A stretch of 64,000 nt of DNA from positions 19,017 through 83,016 of the forward strand of contig JAFTKM010000008.1 of the NCBI GenBank assembly GCA_017453245.1. The letters run 5' to 3'. Source of the stretch: Clostridia bacterium. GTDB taxonomy: Bacteria > Bacillota > Clostridia > Oscillospirales > CAG-272. Shown here piece after piece: positions 851 to 63,067 of this stretch. The translations under genes and the position numbers were made by a program. How positions within the stretch are numbered: the stretch's first letter is position 1; each line of letters starts with the position of its first letter. The notes beneath the pieces are model-generated. The model was not told the DNA's origin, did not search any database, and saw only the letters and a list, made by a program, of their open reading frames with translations.

Positions 851-2254
851 TTAATCGTTTTTGGGCGCGCCGTCGAAGAGGGAGCCGAAATACTCCTCTG
901 CCGCGTCGGAGAGCTCTTCCGAGGCCTTGCCGTCGGTTATCTTTTCATTTGCCTTGGCAAAATAATCGCCGAGAATCTCGCCAAGAGGTCTGTGTGTATT
1001 AGTATCGGGATCAAAGACAAGGTCGTTGCTGCCGTAGATGACGTCACCCGTGCCAAGACCTCCCGAGCCTATGTTTTTATCGGGCTCTTCGCCTCCGGGC
1101 GGTACGGGCGGAGGCGGAGTTTCGGGATCGCGAAGATCGATATCGGTGTCGGGGTCGACAGCGGTAAGGTCGTCCTCGGTGATGCCGAAGAGATTGCAAA
1201 GCTTGTTAATAACTATCCTCATCGTGGATCTGTTGACGTTCTGTACGATGACCTCTGCGTTAAGAGCGGTTGCAGCCTTTGAAAACTCGTCCTCAATATC
1301 CGAGCCTTCTCTGATAGCCGCAGTCAGCCCCTTAAAGAGAAGGTAAAGAGTGTCGCCCGAGTGAACTCCCGAGGCGGCGAGATAGGAATCGATTTCATCA
1401 GCGGTGAAGTCACGGTCATCCGCGCCCGAAGCCGCAACAGACTCGCCAAGAGCGACAAGAGCGTTCTTGGAGCCCGAGCCCGCAAGCTCGCCAAGAGCCT
1501 TTGCAAGCTCCTTTACGGCGTCATCCGAGCTCTCAAGGAATACGACCGACAAGGACTCTGCGGAGTTTGCCTCGACGAGAGCGGCATTAATGCCGAGAAC
1601 CGTGGAGATGGCCTTGGTCTTCATCTCGGAGAGATAATCCGACGACTTGACAAAATCGAGCAAGGAGTTAAGCTCGGTGAGGACCTTTCCTCTCAAGCTA
1701 TCGTTTATGTATGCGCCCTCAACGGTGGTGATCAGCTCGCCGATGGCGGTGATTATCCACTGCTTGTCAAACTCGTCGATAACCGACTCGCCTCCGTCCG
1801 CCTTGGCAGGGACGATGAGCGCGCCGACGATGCATCCAACGGAAATGCAGAAGACAAGAAGTCCTGCGACAAGCTGACGCGCCTTAAGGGATTTTATCGG
1901 CTTTTCACCAAGGCGCTGATCGGCATCCTCGCGCTGAAGACGGGCAAATCCGCCCTCGTCGTCGCGGAGCTCGACCATTGTGCTGACCTTCTCGTCAAGA
2001 CCGTAGAGCGAGTCAAGACGCCTTGCAAGCCGCTTGTCCGACGGCATGAATATGAGATAGAGAACCAGAGAAAGCGCCGCCGCAAATACTGCCGCAAGCA
2101 CGTAAAAGATCGGCTTTACCGCATTGCCGCCAAGCTTACCCGCAAGTATGACTGCGGCAAGGCTGACGACCGATACGCCGACGCCCAGAAGCGCGGATAC
2201 GGCGATTGCCTGCGCTCTGACTCTCCTTTTGAATTTGTTAAAGCTTTTGCTCAT
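851..2254 (-). CDS. Hypothetical membrane protein (467 aa) with N-terminal TM helices and a Pro/Gly-rich C-terminal segment; lies 19 nt upstream of the MoxR gene
   Basis: Long ORF with hydrophobic stretches (AIAVSALLGVGVSVVSLAAVILAG, IFYVLAAVFAAALSLVLYLIF, LVAGLLVFCISVGCIVGALIV) and ETPPPPVPPGGEEP near the C-terminus. I recognise no family. Confidence 0.6.
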   Translation of the reverse strand: MSKSFNKFKRRVRAQAIAVSALLGVGVSVVSLAAVILAGKLGGNAVKPIFYVLAAVFAAALSLVLYLIFMPSDKRLARRLDSLYGLDEKVSTMVELRDDEGGFARLQREDADQRLGEKPIKSLKARQLVAGLLVFCISVGCIVGALIVPAKADGGESVIDEFDKQWIITAIGELITTVEGAYINDSLRGKVLTELNSLLDFVKSSDYLSEMKTKAISTVLGINAALVEANSAESLSVVFLESSDDAVKELAKALGELAGSGSKNALVALGESVAASGADDRDFTADEIDSYLAASGVHSGDTLYLLFKGLTAAIREGSDIEDEFSKAATALNAEVIVQNVNRSTMRIVINKLCNLFGITEDDLTAVDPDTDIDLRDPETPPPPVPPGGEEPDKNIGSGGLGTGDVIYGSNDLVFDPDTNTHRPLGEILGDYFAKANEKITDGKASEELSDAAEEYFGSLFDGAPKND

Positions 2255-2438
2255 TTATACCTCTCGAAAAATATATACAATAAAAATAATTCACACCCAA
2301 TTTTATCATACGGTCTTTGCTTTGTCAAGTAAATTAAAGCCGTTTCCGATGGTGGGTGTGAATTTTTAGACATTCTGTATTATTTTGTCAATTTGGTGTT
2401 TTTGTTTTTGTTGATGATGACAAGCCTTTTTTGGACAC

Positions 2439-2996
2439 TTAAAGCTCGGCGGACAACACGCTCTTAAGATTCTCTGCGGCTATATCCGCGCTCTCGTATC
2501 CGCCGTCGACAAGAATGACAGCGCCATAGATGACCGAAAGGAGCTTAAAGGACAGCTTTGCCTTATCGGATATGCCGCTTTTTTCGGCATAGCGCTCAAC
2601 AGCGGAGATTATCGGCCTGTCGAATTCCTCGAGGGGGCCCATCTTGCCCTTAGCAAGCGTGGCGGAGGCGGAAATAACAGTGCGGAAATTGCCGTTGGCT
2701 ATCCAGAAACGGAGTCCCGCTACCGCAAGCTCGGTGAGGAGCGCCTTGGGGTCGGATGCGAATATCTCGGTAATCTGTCGGGATAAAAGCGTCCAGCCCT
2801 CAATCACAAATTGCATAACAGAGGTTATAAGCTCGTCCTTGTCCTTGAAGTGGCGATAGGGAGCGGCGCAGGAAACTCCTGCGTCCTGAGCAACGCGGCG
2901 GAGTGAAAAATCGCTGACGCCGTGTGTCTCGAGCTCCTTGAGGCCGGAAAAGAGCAATCTTGATCTCACGTTATCGGGGGTAAAGTTTTCTTCCAT
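2439..2996 (-). CDS. TetR/AcrR-family transcriptional regulator
   Basis: N-terminal HTH signature FSLRRVAQDAGVSCAAPYRHFKDKDELI. The 185-aa size is typical. Divergent from the aromatic amino-acid operon. Confidence 0.85.
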   Translation of the reverse strand: MEENFTPDNVRSRLLFSGLKELETHGVSDFSLRRVAQDAGVSCAAPYRHFKDKDELITSVMQFVIEGWTLLSRQITEIFASDPKALLTELAVAGLRFWIANGNFRTVISASATLAKGKMGPLEEFDRPIISAVERYAEKSGISDKAKLSFKLLSVIYGAVILVDGGYESADIAAENLKSVLSAEL

Positions 2997-3013
2997 AATA
3001 TATAATCCCTTTA

Positions 3014-3028
3014 GTTAACAGTATTAAC
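3014..3028. promoter_or_regulatory. Candidate operator O1 (GTTAACAGTATTAAC), immediately downstream of the tetR -10
   Basis: The 18-nt AGTTAACAGTATTAACAT here is near-identical to AGTTAACAATGTTAACAT at 3125-3142. The motif is built on the GTTAAC palindrome. Confidence 0.4.
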
Positions 3029-3034
3029 ATCTAC

Positions 3035-3063
3035 ATTCTAGCACGTTTTTTCATATATTTCAA
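3035..3063 (-). promoter_or_regulatory. Candidate sigma-A promoter of the TetR gene
   Basis: On the minus strand: TTGAAA (3058-3063), 17-nt spacer, TGcTAGAAT (-10 at 3035-3040, extended TGn). Confidence 0.45.
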
Positions 3064-3082
3064 GTGCTTTTTACAAAAAGAC

Positions 3083-3110
3083 TTGACTTTTTCCCTATTT
3101 CGTGTATAAT
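3083..3110 (+). promoter_or_regulatory. Candidate sigma-A promoter of the aromatic amino-acid operon
   Basis: TTGACT (3083-3088), 16-nt spacer, TATAAT (3105-3110). A second TATAAT lies at 3115-3120. Confidence 0.5.
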
Positions 3111-3125
3111 ATGTGTATAATCCAA

Positions 3126-3140
3126 GTTAACAATGTTAAC
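3126..3140. promoter_or_regulatory. Candidate operator O2 (GTTAACAATGTTAAC), between the operon -10 and the RBS
   Basis: Two GTTAAC palindromes spaced by 3 nt. This is the paralogue of O1 at 3014-3028. Confidence 0.4.
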
Positions 3141-3154
3141 ATTACGGAGGAATT

Positions 3155-4351
3155 ATGATCAACGACAAGATGTACGCGCTCGGTTCTCAGCGCTCCGAGA
3201 TACGCGAGCTTTTTGAATACGGAAAAAAAAGAAAGGCCGAGATAGGCGAGGAGAACGTATTTGACTTCTCGCTCGGTAACCCGAGTGTCCCCTGCCCCGA
3301 GGAGGTTAACGAGGCAATCGTCTCCCTCGTCAGGAGCGGCAACTCTGTGAGCCTGCACGGCTACACGTCAGCGCAGGGCGATAAGGGTGTGCGCGATGCT
3401 ATCGCCTCGCATATTTCACGGGCTCACGGCTTTGAGGTATCCGGTGACGATCTGTATCTCACGGTTGGCGCGGCGGCGGCTCTTACCTGCTCCCTGACTG
3501 CAACGGTATGCCCCGGCGAGGAGGTCATTCTCCTGGCTCCGTATTTCCCCGAATATAAGGTTTTCGTCGAGAGGACGGGAGCGAGCGTCAAGGTAGTCAA
3601 ATGCACGGAAGGAAGCTTCGAGCCTGACGTTGATGCTATCAGGTCGGCTATCACCGAGAGGACTGCGGCGATCATAGTTAACTCACCGAACAACCCCACC
3701 GGCGCGGTATACTCCGAGAGTAGCATCAAGGCTATCGTAGAGGTCTTGAATGAGAAATCACGCGAGTACGGAAGGGACATATATCTCATAGCGGACGAGC
3801 CGTACAGAGAGCTTGTCTACGACGGTGTGTACGTGCCGTTTATTCCTAAGTATTACGATAATACTATCGTCTGCTATTCGTACAGTAAATCGCTCTCTCT
3901 CCCGGGCGAGAGAATAGGCTATTGCCTTGTCAGCCCGAGAGCACATGAGCACCTGAGGGTATACCTTGCGATATGCGGAGCGGGACGCGCGCTCGGTTAC
4001 GTTTGCGCACCGTCACTTCTGCAAAAAGCGATACCTTACTGCATAGGACTTTACTCAGATTTGAGCGTTTATGATAAAAATAGACAACTTTTGTTGACAA
4101 ATCTTACCGAATACGGTTTTGAAGTGGTAAAGCCGCAAGGAGCGTTCTATTTATTTATCAAGGCTCCGGATGGCAATTCGAAGGCTTTCTCCGAGGAGGC
4201 TAAGAAGCATGAGCTACTTATAGTCGCGAGCGACAGCTTCGGCTACTCGGGATACGCCAGAATATCCTACTGCGTAAAAACCGAACAGATAGAAAAGGCC
4301 CTCCCCGCCTTCCGCGCTTTGGCGGAGCGCTTAGGGCTTTGCGGAGAATAA
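3155..4351 (+). CDS. PLP-dependent class I/II aminotransferase (aspartate/aromatic type)
   Basis: 398 aa. Motifs NPSVPCP, NSPNNPTG and YSYSKSLSLPGERIGY (PLP-lysine motif). GGAGG RBS. First gene of the aromatic cluster. Confidence 0.85.
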   Translation: MINDKMYALGSQRSEIRELFEYGKKRKAEIGEENVFDFSLGNPSVPCPEEVNEAIVSLVRSGNSVSLHGYTSAQGDKGVRDAIASHISRAHGFEVSGDDLYLTVGAAAALTCSLTATVCPGEEVILLAPYFPEYKVFVERTGASVKVVKCTEGSFEPDVDAIRSAITERTAAIIVNSPNNPTGAVYSESSIKAIVEVLNEKSREYGRDIYLIADEPYRELVYDGVYVPFIPKYYDNTIVCYSYSKSLSLPGERIGYCLVSPRAHEHLRVYLAICGAGRALGYVCAPSLLQKAIPYCIGLYSDLSVYDKNRQLLLTNLTEYGFEVVKPQGAFYLFIKAPDGNSKAFSEEAKKHELLIVASDSFGYSGYARISYCVKTEQIEKALPAFRALAERLGLCGE

Positions 4352-59798: not shown

Positions 59799-61793
59799 CT
59801 AAATATTAAATTTTAGTTCCCTAATTTTACCCGATTTTTCCGTGACGGTGACCTCTACATTGCCGTCTGTATTTTTCATTTCAACCGACGTAATTACCGA
59901 GTCGGACTTATACGCCTCGATGACGTTTATGAATATCGGGCATTTCTCGGTTGTGCGCTCAAGAAGATATGACACGCTCGAGGTTGCGGGATTGTTAGGT
60001 CCCTTAGCTAGTATCAGCTCCTTGCCTTCTGCCAAGGTGTGGACGTCCATACACCAACCGTCAGCGCGGTATGTGAGCTTGGTCGGGCGGTCGCATCGGT
60101 AGGAATAAGCTTCGCCAAGGTAGACTCCTGCGCCCTTGTCAGAGACCTTGCCGATATACTCAGCCTCCTTCGGTAGCTCTGCCTCCGCATTGATATGCCA
60201 GATCCATTCCTTCTTTAAGTCGTTATCCGATCTTACAGAGAAAACGTCGATGAAATACTTATCGTGCCACGAGATGATGCGGCGCATTGTGACACCCCTG
60301 TATGACTCGTCCGACCACTGCTTGATGGTGAAGGAGTCGAGCATCTCATACTCCTCGGGCGGCAGAGTCTCGGCATCAAGGTAGATATCGTCGGGAGCAC
60401 TCATACGATATTCTCTGATACGGGTATCACAGGGCGCCATATTCTCACCGTCGATAACAACGGTATTATGCGCCAGAGTATTCTTAAAATAACCGTAATG
60501 AAGAGGCGAACCGTAGCCCGAAGCGGTGCCAAAATCCATACACGCCCCCGCGCCAAAGGCGTCAAAGGAGAGAGCCAAGCGGTCATAGTGATCGTGCTCA
60601 CCGCCATAGGGTGTCGCCTTAAATAAGAGGGTTCTGCCCTCGGTTCCGTGAAGGATAGCGAGACCTGATCCACGCTCGGAAAGATAGTTTTCAAGCGGTA
60701 TTTCGTGACGCGCGGGAAGGTTATCTACGCCATAGATCAGCGCGTCAAGATGTCCCCTCTTACCTTCTCTGTCACTTAAGTAAAGCAGAGCAAGTATTTC
60801 GTCCGTGCCAAATACCGAGTAGGCAAATTCGTATATGTCCGAATAGCCCGAGAGTGAGCCGTGACCGTCGTTTAGCCTTGCGGTATTCGAGTCGTTCACA
60901 CGGAGCTTGAGAGGCAGGATCAAGGCCTTATAGAGCTTGTCGCGGTAGTGCGGATCTCCGAAAAGGCTATGCTCTGTGTTCTTCGCCATCTTCTCAAAGG
61001 TCATAAACCACCTGAGAGCATAGAGATGGTAGGATACCGAGCACTCAAACCACAAATTATCCTCGAGGTAGGCGTGGTCTATCTGGTATTTGAGACCGTA
61101 CTTGGTATCGGTGGCAAAGCGCACAAGCTCCCCATCTTCGATGGCAAGACCTATCGCGGCGATCGACGTGCAGATAGCGACCTCGTGGTTGTGTAGCTGA
61201 GGGGTAAGATACTTCCTCTGATGCTCTGCCGCGGGGCGGAACAGCTCGTTCTCGATAATGGTACGTTCCTCGTCTGTGAAGCTGAATTTGATAAGCGAAT
61301 ATGCGGGAGCGAGATTGCAGATTGGCTCGCAATCGGTAAGCACCTGAGCGGCAAATCTGCCCGGGTGATTATACGGAATGCCTCCGTTAACCTCATAGTT
61401 TTTGTAGTTTTCGGCGTAGCCGAGTATTATTGTCTTTGCGACAGATAAGAAGTCCTCCCTGCCCGTCGCAACATAGCCTATGGCAAGCTTATATGCGGCA
61501 GAGGTTGTCATAGTGAGGACCGTCTCCCACCACGCGCCAAGGTATGGCTCGCCCGTCTGCACACCTCCGCACTCGGGGCAGACAAAGCGCTCGTTGTCAT
61601 TATAGTTGAAGCTAAGGCGCGTGCCGCACTCGGGACAGGTGAAATAGTGATACCACGTGGCAAGACCTGTCTTTTGTATATAGAGCTTTCGGCGGACGTT
61701 GCTTGTGCTATTCTCGATCTTTGTTATATATTCGGGGTGATTTTCCACCCTTTTTCTTATTATTTCGATGTCTCTTTCGGAAAATATCATCAT
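59799..61793 (-). CDS. Heparinase II/III-like (alginate-lyase-superfamily) protein with an N-terminal zinc-ribbon
   Basis: 664 aa. CPECGTRLSF...CPECGG, SVSYHLYALRWF, GGEHDHYDRLALSF, KNTLAHNTVVIDGENM. No signal peptide. Confidence 0.7.
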   Translation of the reverse strand: MMIFSERDIEIIRKRVENHPEYITKIENSTSNVRRKLYIQKTGLATWYHYFTCPECGTRLSFNYNDNERFVCPECGGVQTGEPYLGAWWETVLTMTTSAAYKLAIGYVATGREDFLSVAKTIILGYAENYKNYEVNGGIPYNHPGRFAAQVLTDCEPICNLAPAYSLIKFSFTDEERTIIENELFRPAAEHQRKYLTPQLHNHEVAICTSIAAIGLAIEDGELVRFATDTKYGLKYQIDHAYLEDNLWFECSVSYHLYALRWFMTFEKMAKNTEHSLFGDPHYRDKLYKALILPLKLRVNDSNTARLNDGHGSLSGYSDIYEFAYSVFGTDEILALLYLSDREGKRGHLDALIYGVDNLPARHEIPLENYLSERGSGLAILHGTEGRTLLFKATPYGGEHDHYDRLALSFDAFGAGACMDFGTASGYGSPLHYGYFKNTLAHNTVVIDGENMAPCDTRIREYRMSAPDDIYLDAETLPPEEYEMLDSFTIKQWSDESYRGVTMRRIISWHDKYFIDVFSVRSDNDLKKEWIWHINAEAELPKEAEYIGKVSDKGAGVYLGEAYSYRCDRPTKLTYRADGWCMDVHTLAEGKELILAKGPNNPATSSVSYLLERTTEKCPIFINVIEAYKSDSVITSVEMKNTDGNVEVTVTEKSGKIRELKFNI

Positions 61794-61824
61794 ATTTACC
61801 TCGCGGCTGGTTGATTTCGTCTCT

Positions 61825-61853
61825 ATTTTAGCATATTAAAGCGAAGTTGTAAA
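61825..61853 (-). promoter_or_regulatory. Candidate promoter of the heparinase-like gene
   Basis: On the minus strand: TTTACA (61848-61853), 17-nt spacer, TGcTAAAAT (-10 at 61825-61830). Confidence 0.45.
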
Positions 61854-61858
61854 GTAGA

Positions 61859-62154
61859 GTGACGATGATTCTTTACTCCGTAAAGAGATATATTCGCCCT
61901 GAGGCGAGTGATATGTTGCTTTTCGCAACGTGATATTATTTCGCCGTGCGAAATAGTGATATGCTCGCTACAAGCGAGCGTTAAAAGAAAAAGCAACCAG
62001 CAGGTGACGATGATTCTTTACTCCGTAAAGATCGATATTCGCCTTACGGCGATCGATATGCGCTTCGCGCTCGATATATTGGCTTCGCCAATTCTATATG
62101 TGCTCTCACGAGCACGATAAAAGAAGAAAGCAACCATCTACCGGTTGCTTTTCT
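61859..62154. repeat. Two tandem word-hairpin arrays, each opened by GTGACGATGATT-CTTTACtccGTAAAG; words GTGATAT (array 1) and TCGATAT (array 2)
   Basis: Array 1 spans 61859-61979 and array 2 spans 62004-62116. Each is followed by an AAAAGAAnAAAGCAACC... terminator-like motif. Full parse in the findings. Confidence 0.8.
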
Positions 62155-62160
62155 AATATA

Positions 62161-62197
62161 AAAAAGAACGGTCAGCAGGTGACCGTTCTTAATTTTT
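62161..62197 (-). terminator. Terminator T2 of the rplL pseudo-copy
   Basis: AAGAACGGTCA gcagg TGACCGTTCTT. Same loop and flanks as the true rplL terminator, but a completely different stem. Confidence 0.65.
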
Positions 62198-62208
62198 ACA
62201 GAGTGTGA

Positions 62209-62257
62209 ATTACTTAACTTCAACTTCTGCGCCTGCAGCCCCCGAGTCTGCTGCAGA
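62209..62257 (-). pseudogene. rplL 3'-end fragment F2 (last ~10 codons plus stop plus 3' UTR)
   Basis: 62209-62240 is identical over 32 nt to 62695-62726. It then diverges in a 5-nt patch (CCCGA instead of TTGAG). Confidence 0.85.
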
Positions 62258-62390
62258 TAATCAAGCGAAGCGTATCGGGGAGCTCGCTCACCAGTACGCG
62301 AGCGCAGATTGCTCCGTGGCGGCTCGTCACAGACGAGCATAGGCGCGTAGCGCCAAGGACACGAAGTGGACTTACGCCACATAGGAGTAT
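62256..62390. repeat. Structured ~135-nt element, copy B
   Basis: About 93% identical to 62498-62631 (about 9 differences by eye). Contains perfect triloop hairpins GCTCGTC-aca-GACGAGC and GGCGC-gta-GCGCC, enclosed by GTGGCG/CGCCAC. Confidence 0.85.
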
Positions 62391-62502
62391 CTTCTCAGCC
62401 TCTTCCTTAGAGATGCCTTCCTTGATGGTCTTGGGAGCAGTCGGGCAAGATCCTTAGCATCCTTAAGACCAAGACCGCAAACGTCCTTAACAAGCTTGAT
62501 AA
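62387..62502 (-). pseudogene. rplL internal fragment F1 (codons for IKLVKDV...EAEK), frameshifted
   Basis: 50 nt and then 54 nt are identical to 62744-62793 and 62801-62854. They flank a patch where real ACTCAAC (7 nt) is replaced by TCGGGC (6 nt), shifting the frame by one. Confidence 0.85.
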
Positions 62503-62631
62503 TCAAGCGAAGCGTATCGGGGAACTCGTTCACCAGTACGCGAGCGCAGATTGCTCCGTGGCGGCTCGTCGCAGACGAGCATAGGTGCGTAGCGCCAAGG
62601 ACACAAAGTGGACTTACGCCGCAGGGAGCAT
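62498..62631. repeat. Structured ~135-nt element, copy A
   Basis: See copy B. Lies between the true rplL terminator and fragment F1. Confidence 0.85.
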
Positions 62632-62650
62632 AACGGGGATTTTAAAAGAA

Positions 62651-62690
62651 AAAAGCAACCAGCAGGTGGTTGCTTTCTTCTTTATAGAGA
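62651..62690 (-). terminator. rplL intrinsic terminator T1
   Basis: On the minus strand: AAAGCAACCA cctgc TGGTTGCTTTTTTCTTTT. Confidence 0.75.
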
Positions 62691-62695
62691 TGAAA

Positions 62696-63067
62696 TTACT
62701 TAACTTCAACTTCTGCGCCTGCAGCCTTGAGGTCTGCAGCGAGCTTCTCAGCCTCTTCCTTAGAGATGCCTTCCTTGATGGTCTTGGGAGCAGACTCAAC
62801 AAGATCCTTAGCATCCTTAAGACCAAGACCGCAAACGTCCTTAACAAGCTTGATAACGTTAAGCTTGGATGCGCCTGCGCTGGTAAGAACAACGTCAAAC
62901 TCGGTCTTCTCCTCAACAACGGGAGCTGCTGCTGCAACTGCGCCAACTGCTGCTACGGGAGCTGCGGATACACCGAACTCCTCCTCAAGAGCCTTAACGA
63001 GATCAGCAAGTTCAAGAATAGTAAGACCCTTTACAAGGTCAAGAATCTGGGTAGACTTTTCGTTCAT
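62696..63067 (-). CDS. rplL: 50S ribosomal protein L7/L12
   Basis: [36 protein letters not shown]...[56 protein letters not shown]. Confidence 0.95.

Follow-up and report, generated by a model that had tools for sequence, protein, structure and literature searches.

Structured interspersed repeats are known in bacteria from families such as bcr1 of the Bacillus cereus group, BOX, RUP, ERIC and Correia. Repeats of the bcr1 type are protein-less units of about 100–160 nt that are dispersed between genes, vary in copy number between close relatives, keep their fold by compensatory changes and insert beside a short A/T-rich motif (TTTAT in bcr1), with a mover that acts in trans or has not been named. 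We describe here an element with the same properties, present in two copies, A and B, just downstream of rplL in a 64,000-nt stretch of contig JAFTKM010000008.1 from a Clostridia bacterium (hereafter the window). It has no similarity in sequence or fold to the bcr1-type repeats, and unlike them it lacks inverted ends, clamps its ends on an internal strand next to a four-way junction, forms arrays without spacers and lies in phase within arrays of short hairpins separated by constant words (word-hairpin arrays). The general kind, that of the small structured interspersed repeats, is known; the element differs from it in the fold, the end-clamping strand, the arrays and the in-phase placement in arrays that resemble the Gut-1 motif. 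On balance we favour the view that the unit, of about 132 nt, represents an uncatalogued family of protein-less, non-autonomous mobile elements that act as a folded single strand.

Other described systems share part of this anatomy. Like the IS200/IS605 insertion sequences (IS), the palindrome-associated transposable elements (PATEs) and REP/RAYT, the element has no terminal inverted repeats and no clear target duplication. As in the IS200/IS605 group, its insertion is strand- and orientation-specific beside a motif of 4–5 nt, and the substrate that we propose for it, a folded single strand with cleavage sites recognised by internal pairing, would be of the same type. On the other hand, its fold is far more elaborate than two subterminal hairpins, its motif flanks the 3' side as read along the folded strand (targets of the IS608 type are found 5' of the left end), most carriers lack a Y1 transposase, the presence of which does not follow copy number, and no IS with the element's ends was found. 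Rolling-circle nick sites offer a second likeness: the site in rplL reads CTTG^ATAACG, the general site reads N^ATAW, and the unit looks as if released between two such sites. CTTG^ATA is a nick site or target of phiX174 gpA, pC194-type or IS91-type enzymes; the element conserves the ATAW half only. Integron attC sites are likewise recognised as a folded single strand rather than as a sequence and form head-to-tail units at a short core. In an attC site, however, the two ends pair with each other to give a single imperfect hairpin that carries R and L boxes and a GTTRRRY core. The element has none of these features; its ends are paired to an internal strand instead, there is no IntI or attI, and the insertion sites are dispersed. 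Finally, Gut-1 (RF01706) and Gut-1-like arrays share both genomes and intergenic arrays with the element. The boundary of an array unit reads G^ATAT or G^AATT and that of the element G^ATAA, and the element replaces one array unit exactly; but Gut-1 units are simple hairpins of 15–25 nt between 7-nt words, whereas the element is a 132-nt two-domain fold, and its covariance model does not match Gut-1.

An earlier note, made from the letters of the window, had described A and B as two highly structured copies of an element adjoining rplL fragments, with about nine differences between them and no match to a known RNA family, and had looked ahead to further copies in other insertion contexts. These points all stand. 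Both copies lie on the + strand and are 95% identical over the first 126 nt (six differences); the 3' end is more divergent, and we count about 9–10 differences in total. The source genome of the window (G000), a 1.59-Mb, 64%-complete metagenome-assembled genome (MAG), holds 16 full-length and 2 partial copies as detected with BLAST, nhmmer and a covariance model. Homology between most pairs of copies starts and stops within 1–3 nt of the same two points, and so we define the repeated unit as the stretch of about 132 nt that reads 5'-ATAAnC...CATAGGAGT-3'. Some copies are mosaic: the 5' half of that on contig C11 is 97% like the C22 copy, and its 3' half is 94% like a copy on C21. At least eight copies in this genome lie within about 2 kb of a contig end.

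The family was detected with the covariance model in 19 of 25 genomes of the genus, including the source genome; 18 of the other 24 hold 1–13 copies, and across the genus the number of matches per genome runs from 0 to 17, the source genome having 17, of which 16 are full-length and one is partial. Of about 96 other genera in the family, 3 hold 1–2 copies, and 16 genomes of other families of the order gave no model match. A text pattern retrieved 60 further loci from public genomes, all of them MAGs of uncultured Clostridia, Eubacteriales or Oscillospiraceae and many labelled as coming from the gut of roe deer, goat, sheep, water deer or yak, together with 14 short metagenome contigs. The family keeps largely to a single genus-level clade of uncultured Clostridia from the herbivore gut. 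Rfam 15 gave no hit on the element at E values up to 10 across window positions 61700–62800, nor on the copies in six other loci at E up to 0.1, and the same scans matched no ribozyme family. Collections of plasmids and phages contained no match; in six viral contigs a loosened text pattern matched where the model did not, and we regard these as chance matches. A literature search found no published description of the element.

The ends of the unit are exact (5'-ATAAnC ... GGAGT-3'), and they are set in a characteristic context. In 54 non-redundant contexts the four bases that follow GGAGT were A in 53, T in 38, A in 38 and A or T in 45. The base that precedes ATAA was G in about 17 and C in about 5 of 23 sites, counted in sets that had not been selected with G. 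The orientation of the element follows that of this asymmetric flanking motif. Head-to-tail units without spacers, joined as GGAGT|ATAA, occur in genomes G019 and G007 and at loci L060, L090 and L047, and the array in G019 lies between two terminators. Exact ends, the flanking ATAW motif and the tandem arrays together indicate that the unit is a mobile repeat and not a local curiosity of two copies.

Several loci allow occupied and unoccupied sites to be compared. In one MAG (JAZNHD010000064.1, locus L085, positions 2948–3413) a spare copy of the spoIVB 3' region contains three elements at three sites, the outer two being G^ATAA and the middle one C^ATAA, with one element in sense and two in antisense orientation. 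Removal of all three restores the spoIVB reading frame except for one extra T, and against intact genes two of the insertions are clean, at AGCCCG^ATAATACAG and, on the other strand, at CATATTCTCG^ATAAAAATTCC. At two places in the source genome a copy stands exactly where one unit of a word-hairpin array would be (CATG^AATT and C^ATAAC), and element-free versions of both arrays are present elsewhere in that genome. Three copies there split another repeated structured module at CCCG^AAG, an unsplit copy of which lies about 300 nt away. In the closest relative, G023, the intergenic arrays have turned over too far for clean empty-site comparison, except at rplL.

Every copy, when folded alone, adopts the same architecture. 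In P0 the AAUC of the 5' end pairs with GAUU; P1 is a long hairpin, interrupted by internal loops and capped by a CUUG or CUCG tetraloop; and P2, in which GCUCC-GUGGCG pairs with CGCCAC-AUA-GGAGU, closes a four-way junction. Within it, P3 is a variable hairpin with GNRA-type loops in many copies of the source genome, P4 has 5 bp and a GAA, GUA or AAA triloop closed by C-G, and P5 takes one of two forms, AAG-GA-CAC...GUG-GA-CUU, which contains tandem G.A, or a simple GNRA hairpin. A single internal strand, GAUU-GCUCC, pairs with both the 5' end (AAUC) and the 3' end (GGAGU) of the unit. The first and last bases of the unit thereby become neighbours along one uninterrupted partner strand, and the only unpaired bases between them are A-U-A. 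The unit ends coincide exactly with helix ends, and the best-conserved letters of the family (ATAATCAAG, CAGATTGCTCC and GGAGTA) are both ends and the internal strand that pairs with them.

The fold is backed by covariation. Among 16 copies, 85% of the cells in paired columns hold standard pairs, as against 28–47% with slid partners, and 22 pairs change on both sides. In a set of 86 copies, the alignment of which was fitted to the covariance model, the figures are 90% against 29–48% for the slid controls; 40 of 45 pairs change on both sides, and the observed values were reached by none of 500 shuffles. This larger set under-samples covariation in P0 and the outer part of P2, because its 60 pattern-derived loci were chosen for invariant ATAATCAAG, CAGATTGCTC and GGAGT. 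In the unconstrained G019 array (L020) P0 covaries as AACC/GGUU and AAGC/GCUU. The pairing of GCTCC with the terminal GGAGT covaries as GCTAC/GTAGT and GCTCT/AGAGT. The G.U pair that ends P2 hardly varies (76 of 79). The helix GTGGCG/CGCCAC that the earlier note had drawn around GCTCGTC-aca-GACGAGC, GGCGC-gta-GCGCC and CAC-gaa-GTG is confirmed, as is the tendency of changes between copies to keep pairing. Its GGAGC/GCTCC helix was mis-assigned, the partner of GCTCC being the 3'-terminal GGAGT.

The + strand is the folded strand. The minimum free energies of A and B are −60.0 and −57.9 kcal/mol on this strand (z = −5.7 and −5.0, with 0 of 200 shuffles as good), and −52.1 and −45.0 kcal/mol on the − strand (z = −3.1 and −1.4). 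Raw counts of G.U and A.C are about equal; once three doubtful column pairs are set aside (a non-pair and a weak pair, from which the majority of A.C cells come, and a G.U that hardly varies) they become about 87 against about 38, and the excess of G.U is larger in the well-aligned helices P1, P2 and P3. Stable loop types (CUUG/CUCG and C-GNA-G) read correctly on the + strand only. The z-scores, the G.U excess after this set-aside and the loop types thus settle the question of strand, which the earlier note had left open. One change that it had read as a wobble of the − strand, GGAGC to GGAAC, is half of a compensatory change from GGGGAG-CUCG-CUCACC to GGGGAA-CUCG-UUCACC.

The features of the rplL locus are collected in Table 1. 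Besides the gene itself there is a partial duplicate of the rplL 3' region, in which A and B are embedded: A interrupts the spare copy, and B bounds it at the point where the intact gene reads CTTG^ATAACG. A palindrome that had been assigned to copy A, GCTTGAT-A-ATCAAGC, in fact lies at the 5' junction of copy B (62491–62507). The 57 nt next to B are identical to rplL, ATAA stands at both junctions of B, and the repeat of the rplL region has a period of 353–354 nt. All 25 of the other genus genomes with a match have only one rplL 3' end at the orthologous locus, and G023, which is 94–95% identical across rplL, has a single rplL and no element there. Since the terminator behind the spare copy is of the type native to G023 and that behind the intact gene is different, the locus reads, in order, as the native terminator and 3' end (now the spare copy, with A inside), B, a new terminator, and last the gene with a replacement 3' end fused to it. 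Such an order might have arisen if a 354-nt circle comprising B, a terminator and a 3' end integrated at CTTG^ATAA, or if B landed in a tandem duplication.

Table 1. Coordinates of the element copies, their parts and the surrounding rplL features in the window.
Feature	Position	Strand	Remarks
Element copy A, one 132-nt unit, ATAATC...CATAGGAGT	62257..62388	+	Inside spare rplL 3' copy; 136.8 bits (model R1)
Element copy B, 131 nt, ATAATC...GGGAGC, then ATAACG	62499..62629	+	125.5 bits; 5' end abuts rplL site CTTG^ATAA
Copy A internal 'splint', GATT-GCTCC	62307..62315	+	GATT pairs with 5'-end AATC (62260-62263); GCTCC pairs with 3'-end GGAGT (62384-62388)
Copy A P1, long hairpin (GCG..CGC, AGCGTA/TACGCT, GGGGAG-CTCG-CTCACC)	62265..62305	+	
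Copy A four-way junction domain	62311..62388	+	P2 (GCTCC-GTGGCG / CGCCAC-ATA-GGAGT) closes P3, P4 and P5
Copy A hairpin P3	62322-62338	+	
Copy A hairpin P4	62342-62354	+	
Copy A hairpin P5	62355-62373	+	Tandem G.A
Intact rplL (L7/L12)	62696..63067	-	Unoccupied site CTTG^ATAACG at 62850-62859
Spare copy, last 15 codons and stop of rplL	62211..62255	-	82% identical to the real tail
Spare copy, rplL codons upstream of the tail	62391..62498	-	Matches 62744-62852; identical but for patch 62437-62445; ends at GATAA site
Terminator hairpin	62150..62190		Type found after the single rplL of G023; here follows spare copy
Terminator hairpin GCAACCAGCAGGTGGTTGC	62641..62690		After intact rplL; resembles G042 rplL terminator

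Pieces of host genes accompany the element at other loci. Fragments of the C-terminal part of spoIVB lie beside it at more than 20 loci; gene fragments occur on either side of it and in either orientation, and the element-adjacent spoIVB pieces are closer to each other across genomes than to the resident spoIVB. Eight loci from several species (L053, L026, L062, L076, L098, L104, L111 and L112) have the element 50–250 nt downstream of an AraC-family regulator gene, and in all of these except L111 short spoIVB-derived pieces flank it. As the AraC-regulator locus is not near spoIVB, the flanking gene pieces have moved with the element. Leucine-rich repeat (LRR) genes stand near the element in 14 loci; one of these, L050 (G019:C36, 300–3595), has a gene for an LRR/BspA-like surface protein (1389–3017) with one copy upstream and a three-unit tandem array downstream. 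The recurrent neighbours, LRR/BspA-like, AraC-family and SpoIVB, were considered as partners and rejected, because they reflect shared loci.

We compared the element with the known classes to which a unit of this size might belong. It is not a classical miniature inverted-repeat transposable element, since its ends ATAATCAAGCG and ACTCCTATGTG are unrelated, leaving no terminal inverted repeats, and since the 5' ATAATC and the 3' flank often differ (ATAATC against ATTATC, for example), so that there is no fixed target-site duplication. The element shows the traits of a PATE, in that its ends are not inverted repeats, its target is not duplicated and it inserts beside a short motif in a set orientation, but no Y1 transposase was found whose IS shares the ends of the element. 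As a TnpB omega RNA or IS605 right end it fails for want of any model match beside tnpB, and as a bridge or seek RNA of IS110/IS1111 because its internal loops are constant across different targets and the DEDD recombinase is rare. A retroelement-borne RNA (retron, group II intron or SINE-like) is not indicated, reverse transcriptase being found in 3 of 31 genus genomes and not in the source genome. Nor do we see a type III toxin–antitoxin array: downstream of the G019 array stand a terminator and a gene that resembles histidine ammonia-lyase, as judged from the start of its sequence only, and most copies of the element are single. Gut-1 hits of 41.6 and 29.6 bits (gathering score 50) lie beside the element and not on it. 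Two further readings were tried and set aside, namely a promoter with GATAAT as its −10 box, as the upstream sequences share no −35 box, and a leader with AGGAG as its ribosome-binding site, as GGAG is paired in a covarying helix and most copies have no open reading frame (ORF) after them.

The exact ends, the asymmetric motif, the motif-dependent orientation, the arrays, the patchy distribution and the empty rplL locus of G023 together argue for a mobile, non-autonomous element. Because the fold is conserved on one strand and clamps both ends, a single-stranded intermediate is the most economical assumption, one that would formally resemble the nick-and-join reactions of IS200/IS605 or of rolling-circle systems. 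In the mechanism that we envisage, the folded single strand would be the active form, in which the internal strand holds the two cut sites together; an enzyme acting in trans would excise the unit and paste it in at N^ATAA sites, and a strand-specific nicking and joining enzyme of the HUH type, as in the 'peel and paste' of IS200/IS605, would fit best. Insertions would survive mainly where they are harmless, that is, in intergenic word-hairpin arrays and in spare gene 3' copies with G^ATAA (rplL, spoIVB), and the flanking gene pieces would then travel with the element by recombination. A more radical version, which we consider improbable, makes the unit a self-contained mobile element of a new kind and has it pass through a single-stranded circle of DNA or RNA that is joined at GGAGT-ATAA and re-enters at N^ATAA, its ends clamped on the internal strand as a guide, the catalyst being a host or extrachromosomal nicking-joining enzyme or the fold itself; Gut-1-type arrays would be miniature relatives made by the same reaction.

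A number of observations weigh against the mobile-element account. The candidate partner enzyme was not found. Comparison of neighbouring proteins gave no consistently adjacent gene across the loci, and on the 14 metagenome contigs, judged from ORF starts only, there was no recombinase-like neighbour. Among 31 genus genomes, Y1_Tnp (PF01797) is present in 10 and does not track copy number (G007, with 13 copies, has none), reverse transcriptase (RVT_1, PF00078) in 3, TnpB (PF07282) in 2 and IS110 in 1–3 (PF01548 above its cut-off in 1), the last three not in the source genome; Rep_1 and Y2_Tnp (IS91-type) were found in none, the control genomes being equally silent, so that these two counts are uninformative. 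No model match lies beside Y1, TnpB or other candidate genes, including six Y1 loci scanned with filters off. The source genome encodes a phiX174-like two-tyrosine rolling-circle Rep (C23:89197–90225, − strand; FVTFTY, HFHGLVY and YILKYIGK; PF23343, E = 1.2e-9), but such a protein is present in only 3 of the 31. All of these genomes are MAGs, the bins of which usually lack plasmids and phages, so that the partner enzyme could be extrachromosomal. The fold, moreover, is more elaborate than known HUH transposases need. At the insertion sites themselves, an extra A or T precedes the last 5'-flank base in several cases, copy A has AT between GGAGT and CTTCTC that is absent from intact rplL, some 3' flanks are AAG or AATT instead of ATAW, and the G of the 5' flank in the 60 MAG loci is partly an artefact of the search pattern. 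Flanks are often common to several copies, which means that they travel with the element and that independent insertions are fewer than copies. Lastly, C-GNA-G triloops are classic for single-stranded DNA and CUUG or GNRA loops for RNA, and the folded + strand, as judged from sequence, may be either RNA or single-stranded DNA.

A serious alternative is compatible with mobility and, in our view, possible if on the whole unlikely: the + strand transcript may be a functional structured RNA (a small RNA, a protein-binding scaffold or a self-processing RNA) that was multiplied by duplication and recombination. Tandem arrays may then be multi-unit transcripts cut at GGAGU^AUAA, with the internal strand holding the ends for cutting or joining. 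The covariation, strong over the whole unit including its variable hairpins, is what such an RNA would leave, as are the GNRA-type loops of P3 in copies of the source genome, the CUUG/CUCG loops of P1, the tandem G.A of P5 and the nearly invariant G.U of P2. The terminators around the G019 array and the exact agreement of unit ends with helix ends point the same way, and so does the replacement of a hairpin in Gut-1-like arrays, Gut-1 being listed by Rfam as an RNA motif. Against this, there is no convincing promoter upstream of A and B, and the terminators on both sides of them suggest low read-through; no ribozyme or RNA family in Rfam matches. Species of a single genus hold anywhere from 0 to 17 copies, the orientation of the element with respect to its neighbouring genes differs between loci, the ATAW flank and the motif-dependent orientation are properties of DNA insertion, and the C-GNA-G triloops would suit single-stranded DNA equally.

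The rplL locus suggests something else again, that the element may serve small integrative cassettes as an attachment or recognition site, at which a conservative site-specific recombinase acts on a short core, ATAA, the circle consisting of the element and a replacement gene 3' end. This would liken it to islands that target tRNA genes or gene ends and to their integrase-less remnants. The order of native 3' end, B, new terminator and replacement 3' end agrees with such an event, as do the G023 type of the spare-copy terminator beside a terminator of another species' type after the intact gene, the repeat period and the ATAA at both junctions of B; the spoIVB fragments beside the element at many loci, and their likeness to each other, fit it as well. 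Most copies, however (those in arrays, the array insertions, copy A and the spoIVB sites of L085), are simple insertions that keep both target arms with no duplicated gene end. A double-strand recombinase would give no reason for a strand-specific covarying fold, none is linked to the element, and no inverted binding arms surround the core. We therefore judge a cassette site to be distinctly improbable. An orphan guide-RNA scaffold, either a TnpB/IscB omega RNA or an IS110 bridge RNA, with the rplL and spoIVB pieces serving as guides, is very improbable, and the class comparisons above already largely refute it. A length of about 130 nt and a compact fold are of the right order, terminal inverted repeats are absent, and the flank of B matches its host gene exactly over 57 nt. 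Yet tnpB and IS110 are rare in the genus and missing from the source genome, Rfam gave no HEARO or IS605-orfB motif, the few TnpB and Y1 genes have no model match beside them, gene fragments lie on either side in either orientation, and the internal loops do not vary with the target.

With 86 aligned copies and 40 covarying pairs, the family joins the few bacterial non-coding elements that have a complex fold and no known function. In its anatomy, the exact ends clamped on an internal strand, the asymmetric ATAW site, the arrays without spacers and the in-phase position within Gut-1-like arrays all suggest that single strands are cut and joined, and none of the usual enzymes was seen. The Gut-1 motif has, to our knowledge, been without explanation since its description in 2010, and if the link to the word-hairpin arrays is true it would give that motif a testable origin. 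The family also accounts for the spare 3' copies that trail the essential genes rplL and spoIVB in these genomes, and it matters for the annotation of MAGs, as such fragments and repeats break assemblies.

In the window itself, two Gut-1-like mini-hairpin arrays lie at 61885–61975 and 62025–62115 on the + strand, with the constant words GTG|ATAT and TCG|ATAT; one of them is the source of the 41.6-bit score, and the unit boundary G^ATAT has the same form as the G^ATAA of the element. The only two patches in which the spare rplL copy departs from the gene, at 62241–62254 and 62437–62445, are complementary to each other (GCCCCCGA..CTGCT with AGCAG..TCGGGC) and keep a helix that would enclose copy A.

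Intergenic DNA of the source genome is built from several stacked repeat families. Among them is a second uncatalogued structured module, (T)TTTGAGrTA...CTTCkACCCG^AAG-hairpin-CGAGCyTTGGTmGAAAAcGGcGG, the one that is split by the 132-nt element in three copies. Rfam does not contain it, covariation is seen in its outer helix (TTCGACC/GGTCGAA and TTCTACC/GGTAGAA), and it is found at C22:5500–5570, C23:121134–121222, C17:42808–42900, C9:15659–15739, C4:92216–92290, C17:37199–37250, C23:113433–113480 and C23:53687–53736. Several copies of the element in this genome are preceded by a multi-copy repeat that contains GAGTGTCATCCTGAGC(GAAGTGCGTAAGCACGGAGTCAG) and followed by further shared repeats, AACCCGCAGGGCGACAC... 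and AAGTTTTGCTCCGG...; these stacked sites are C21:15937–16016, C21:45630–45709, C26:39339–39418, C3:1713–1792 and C2:115528–115607.

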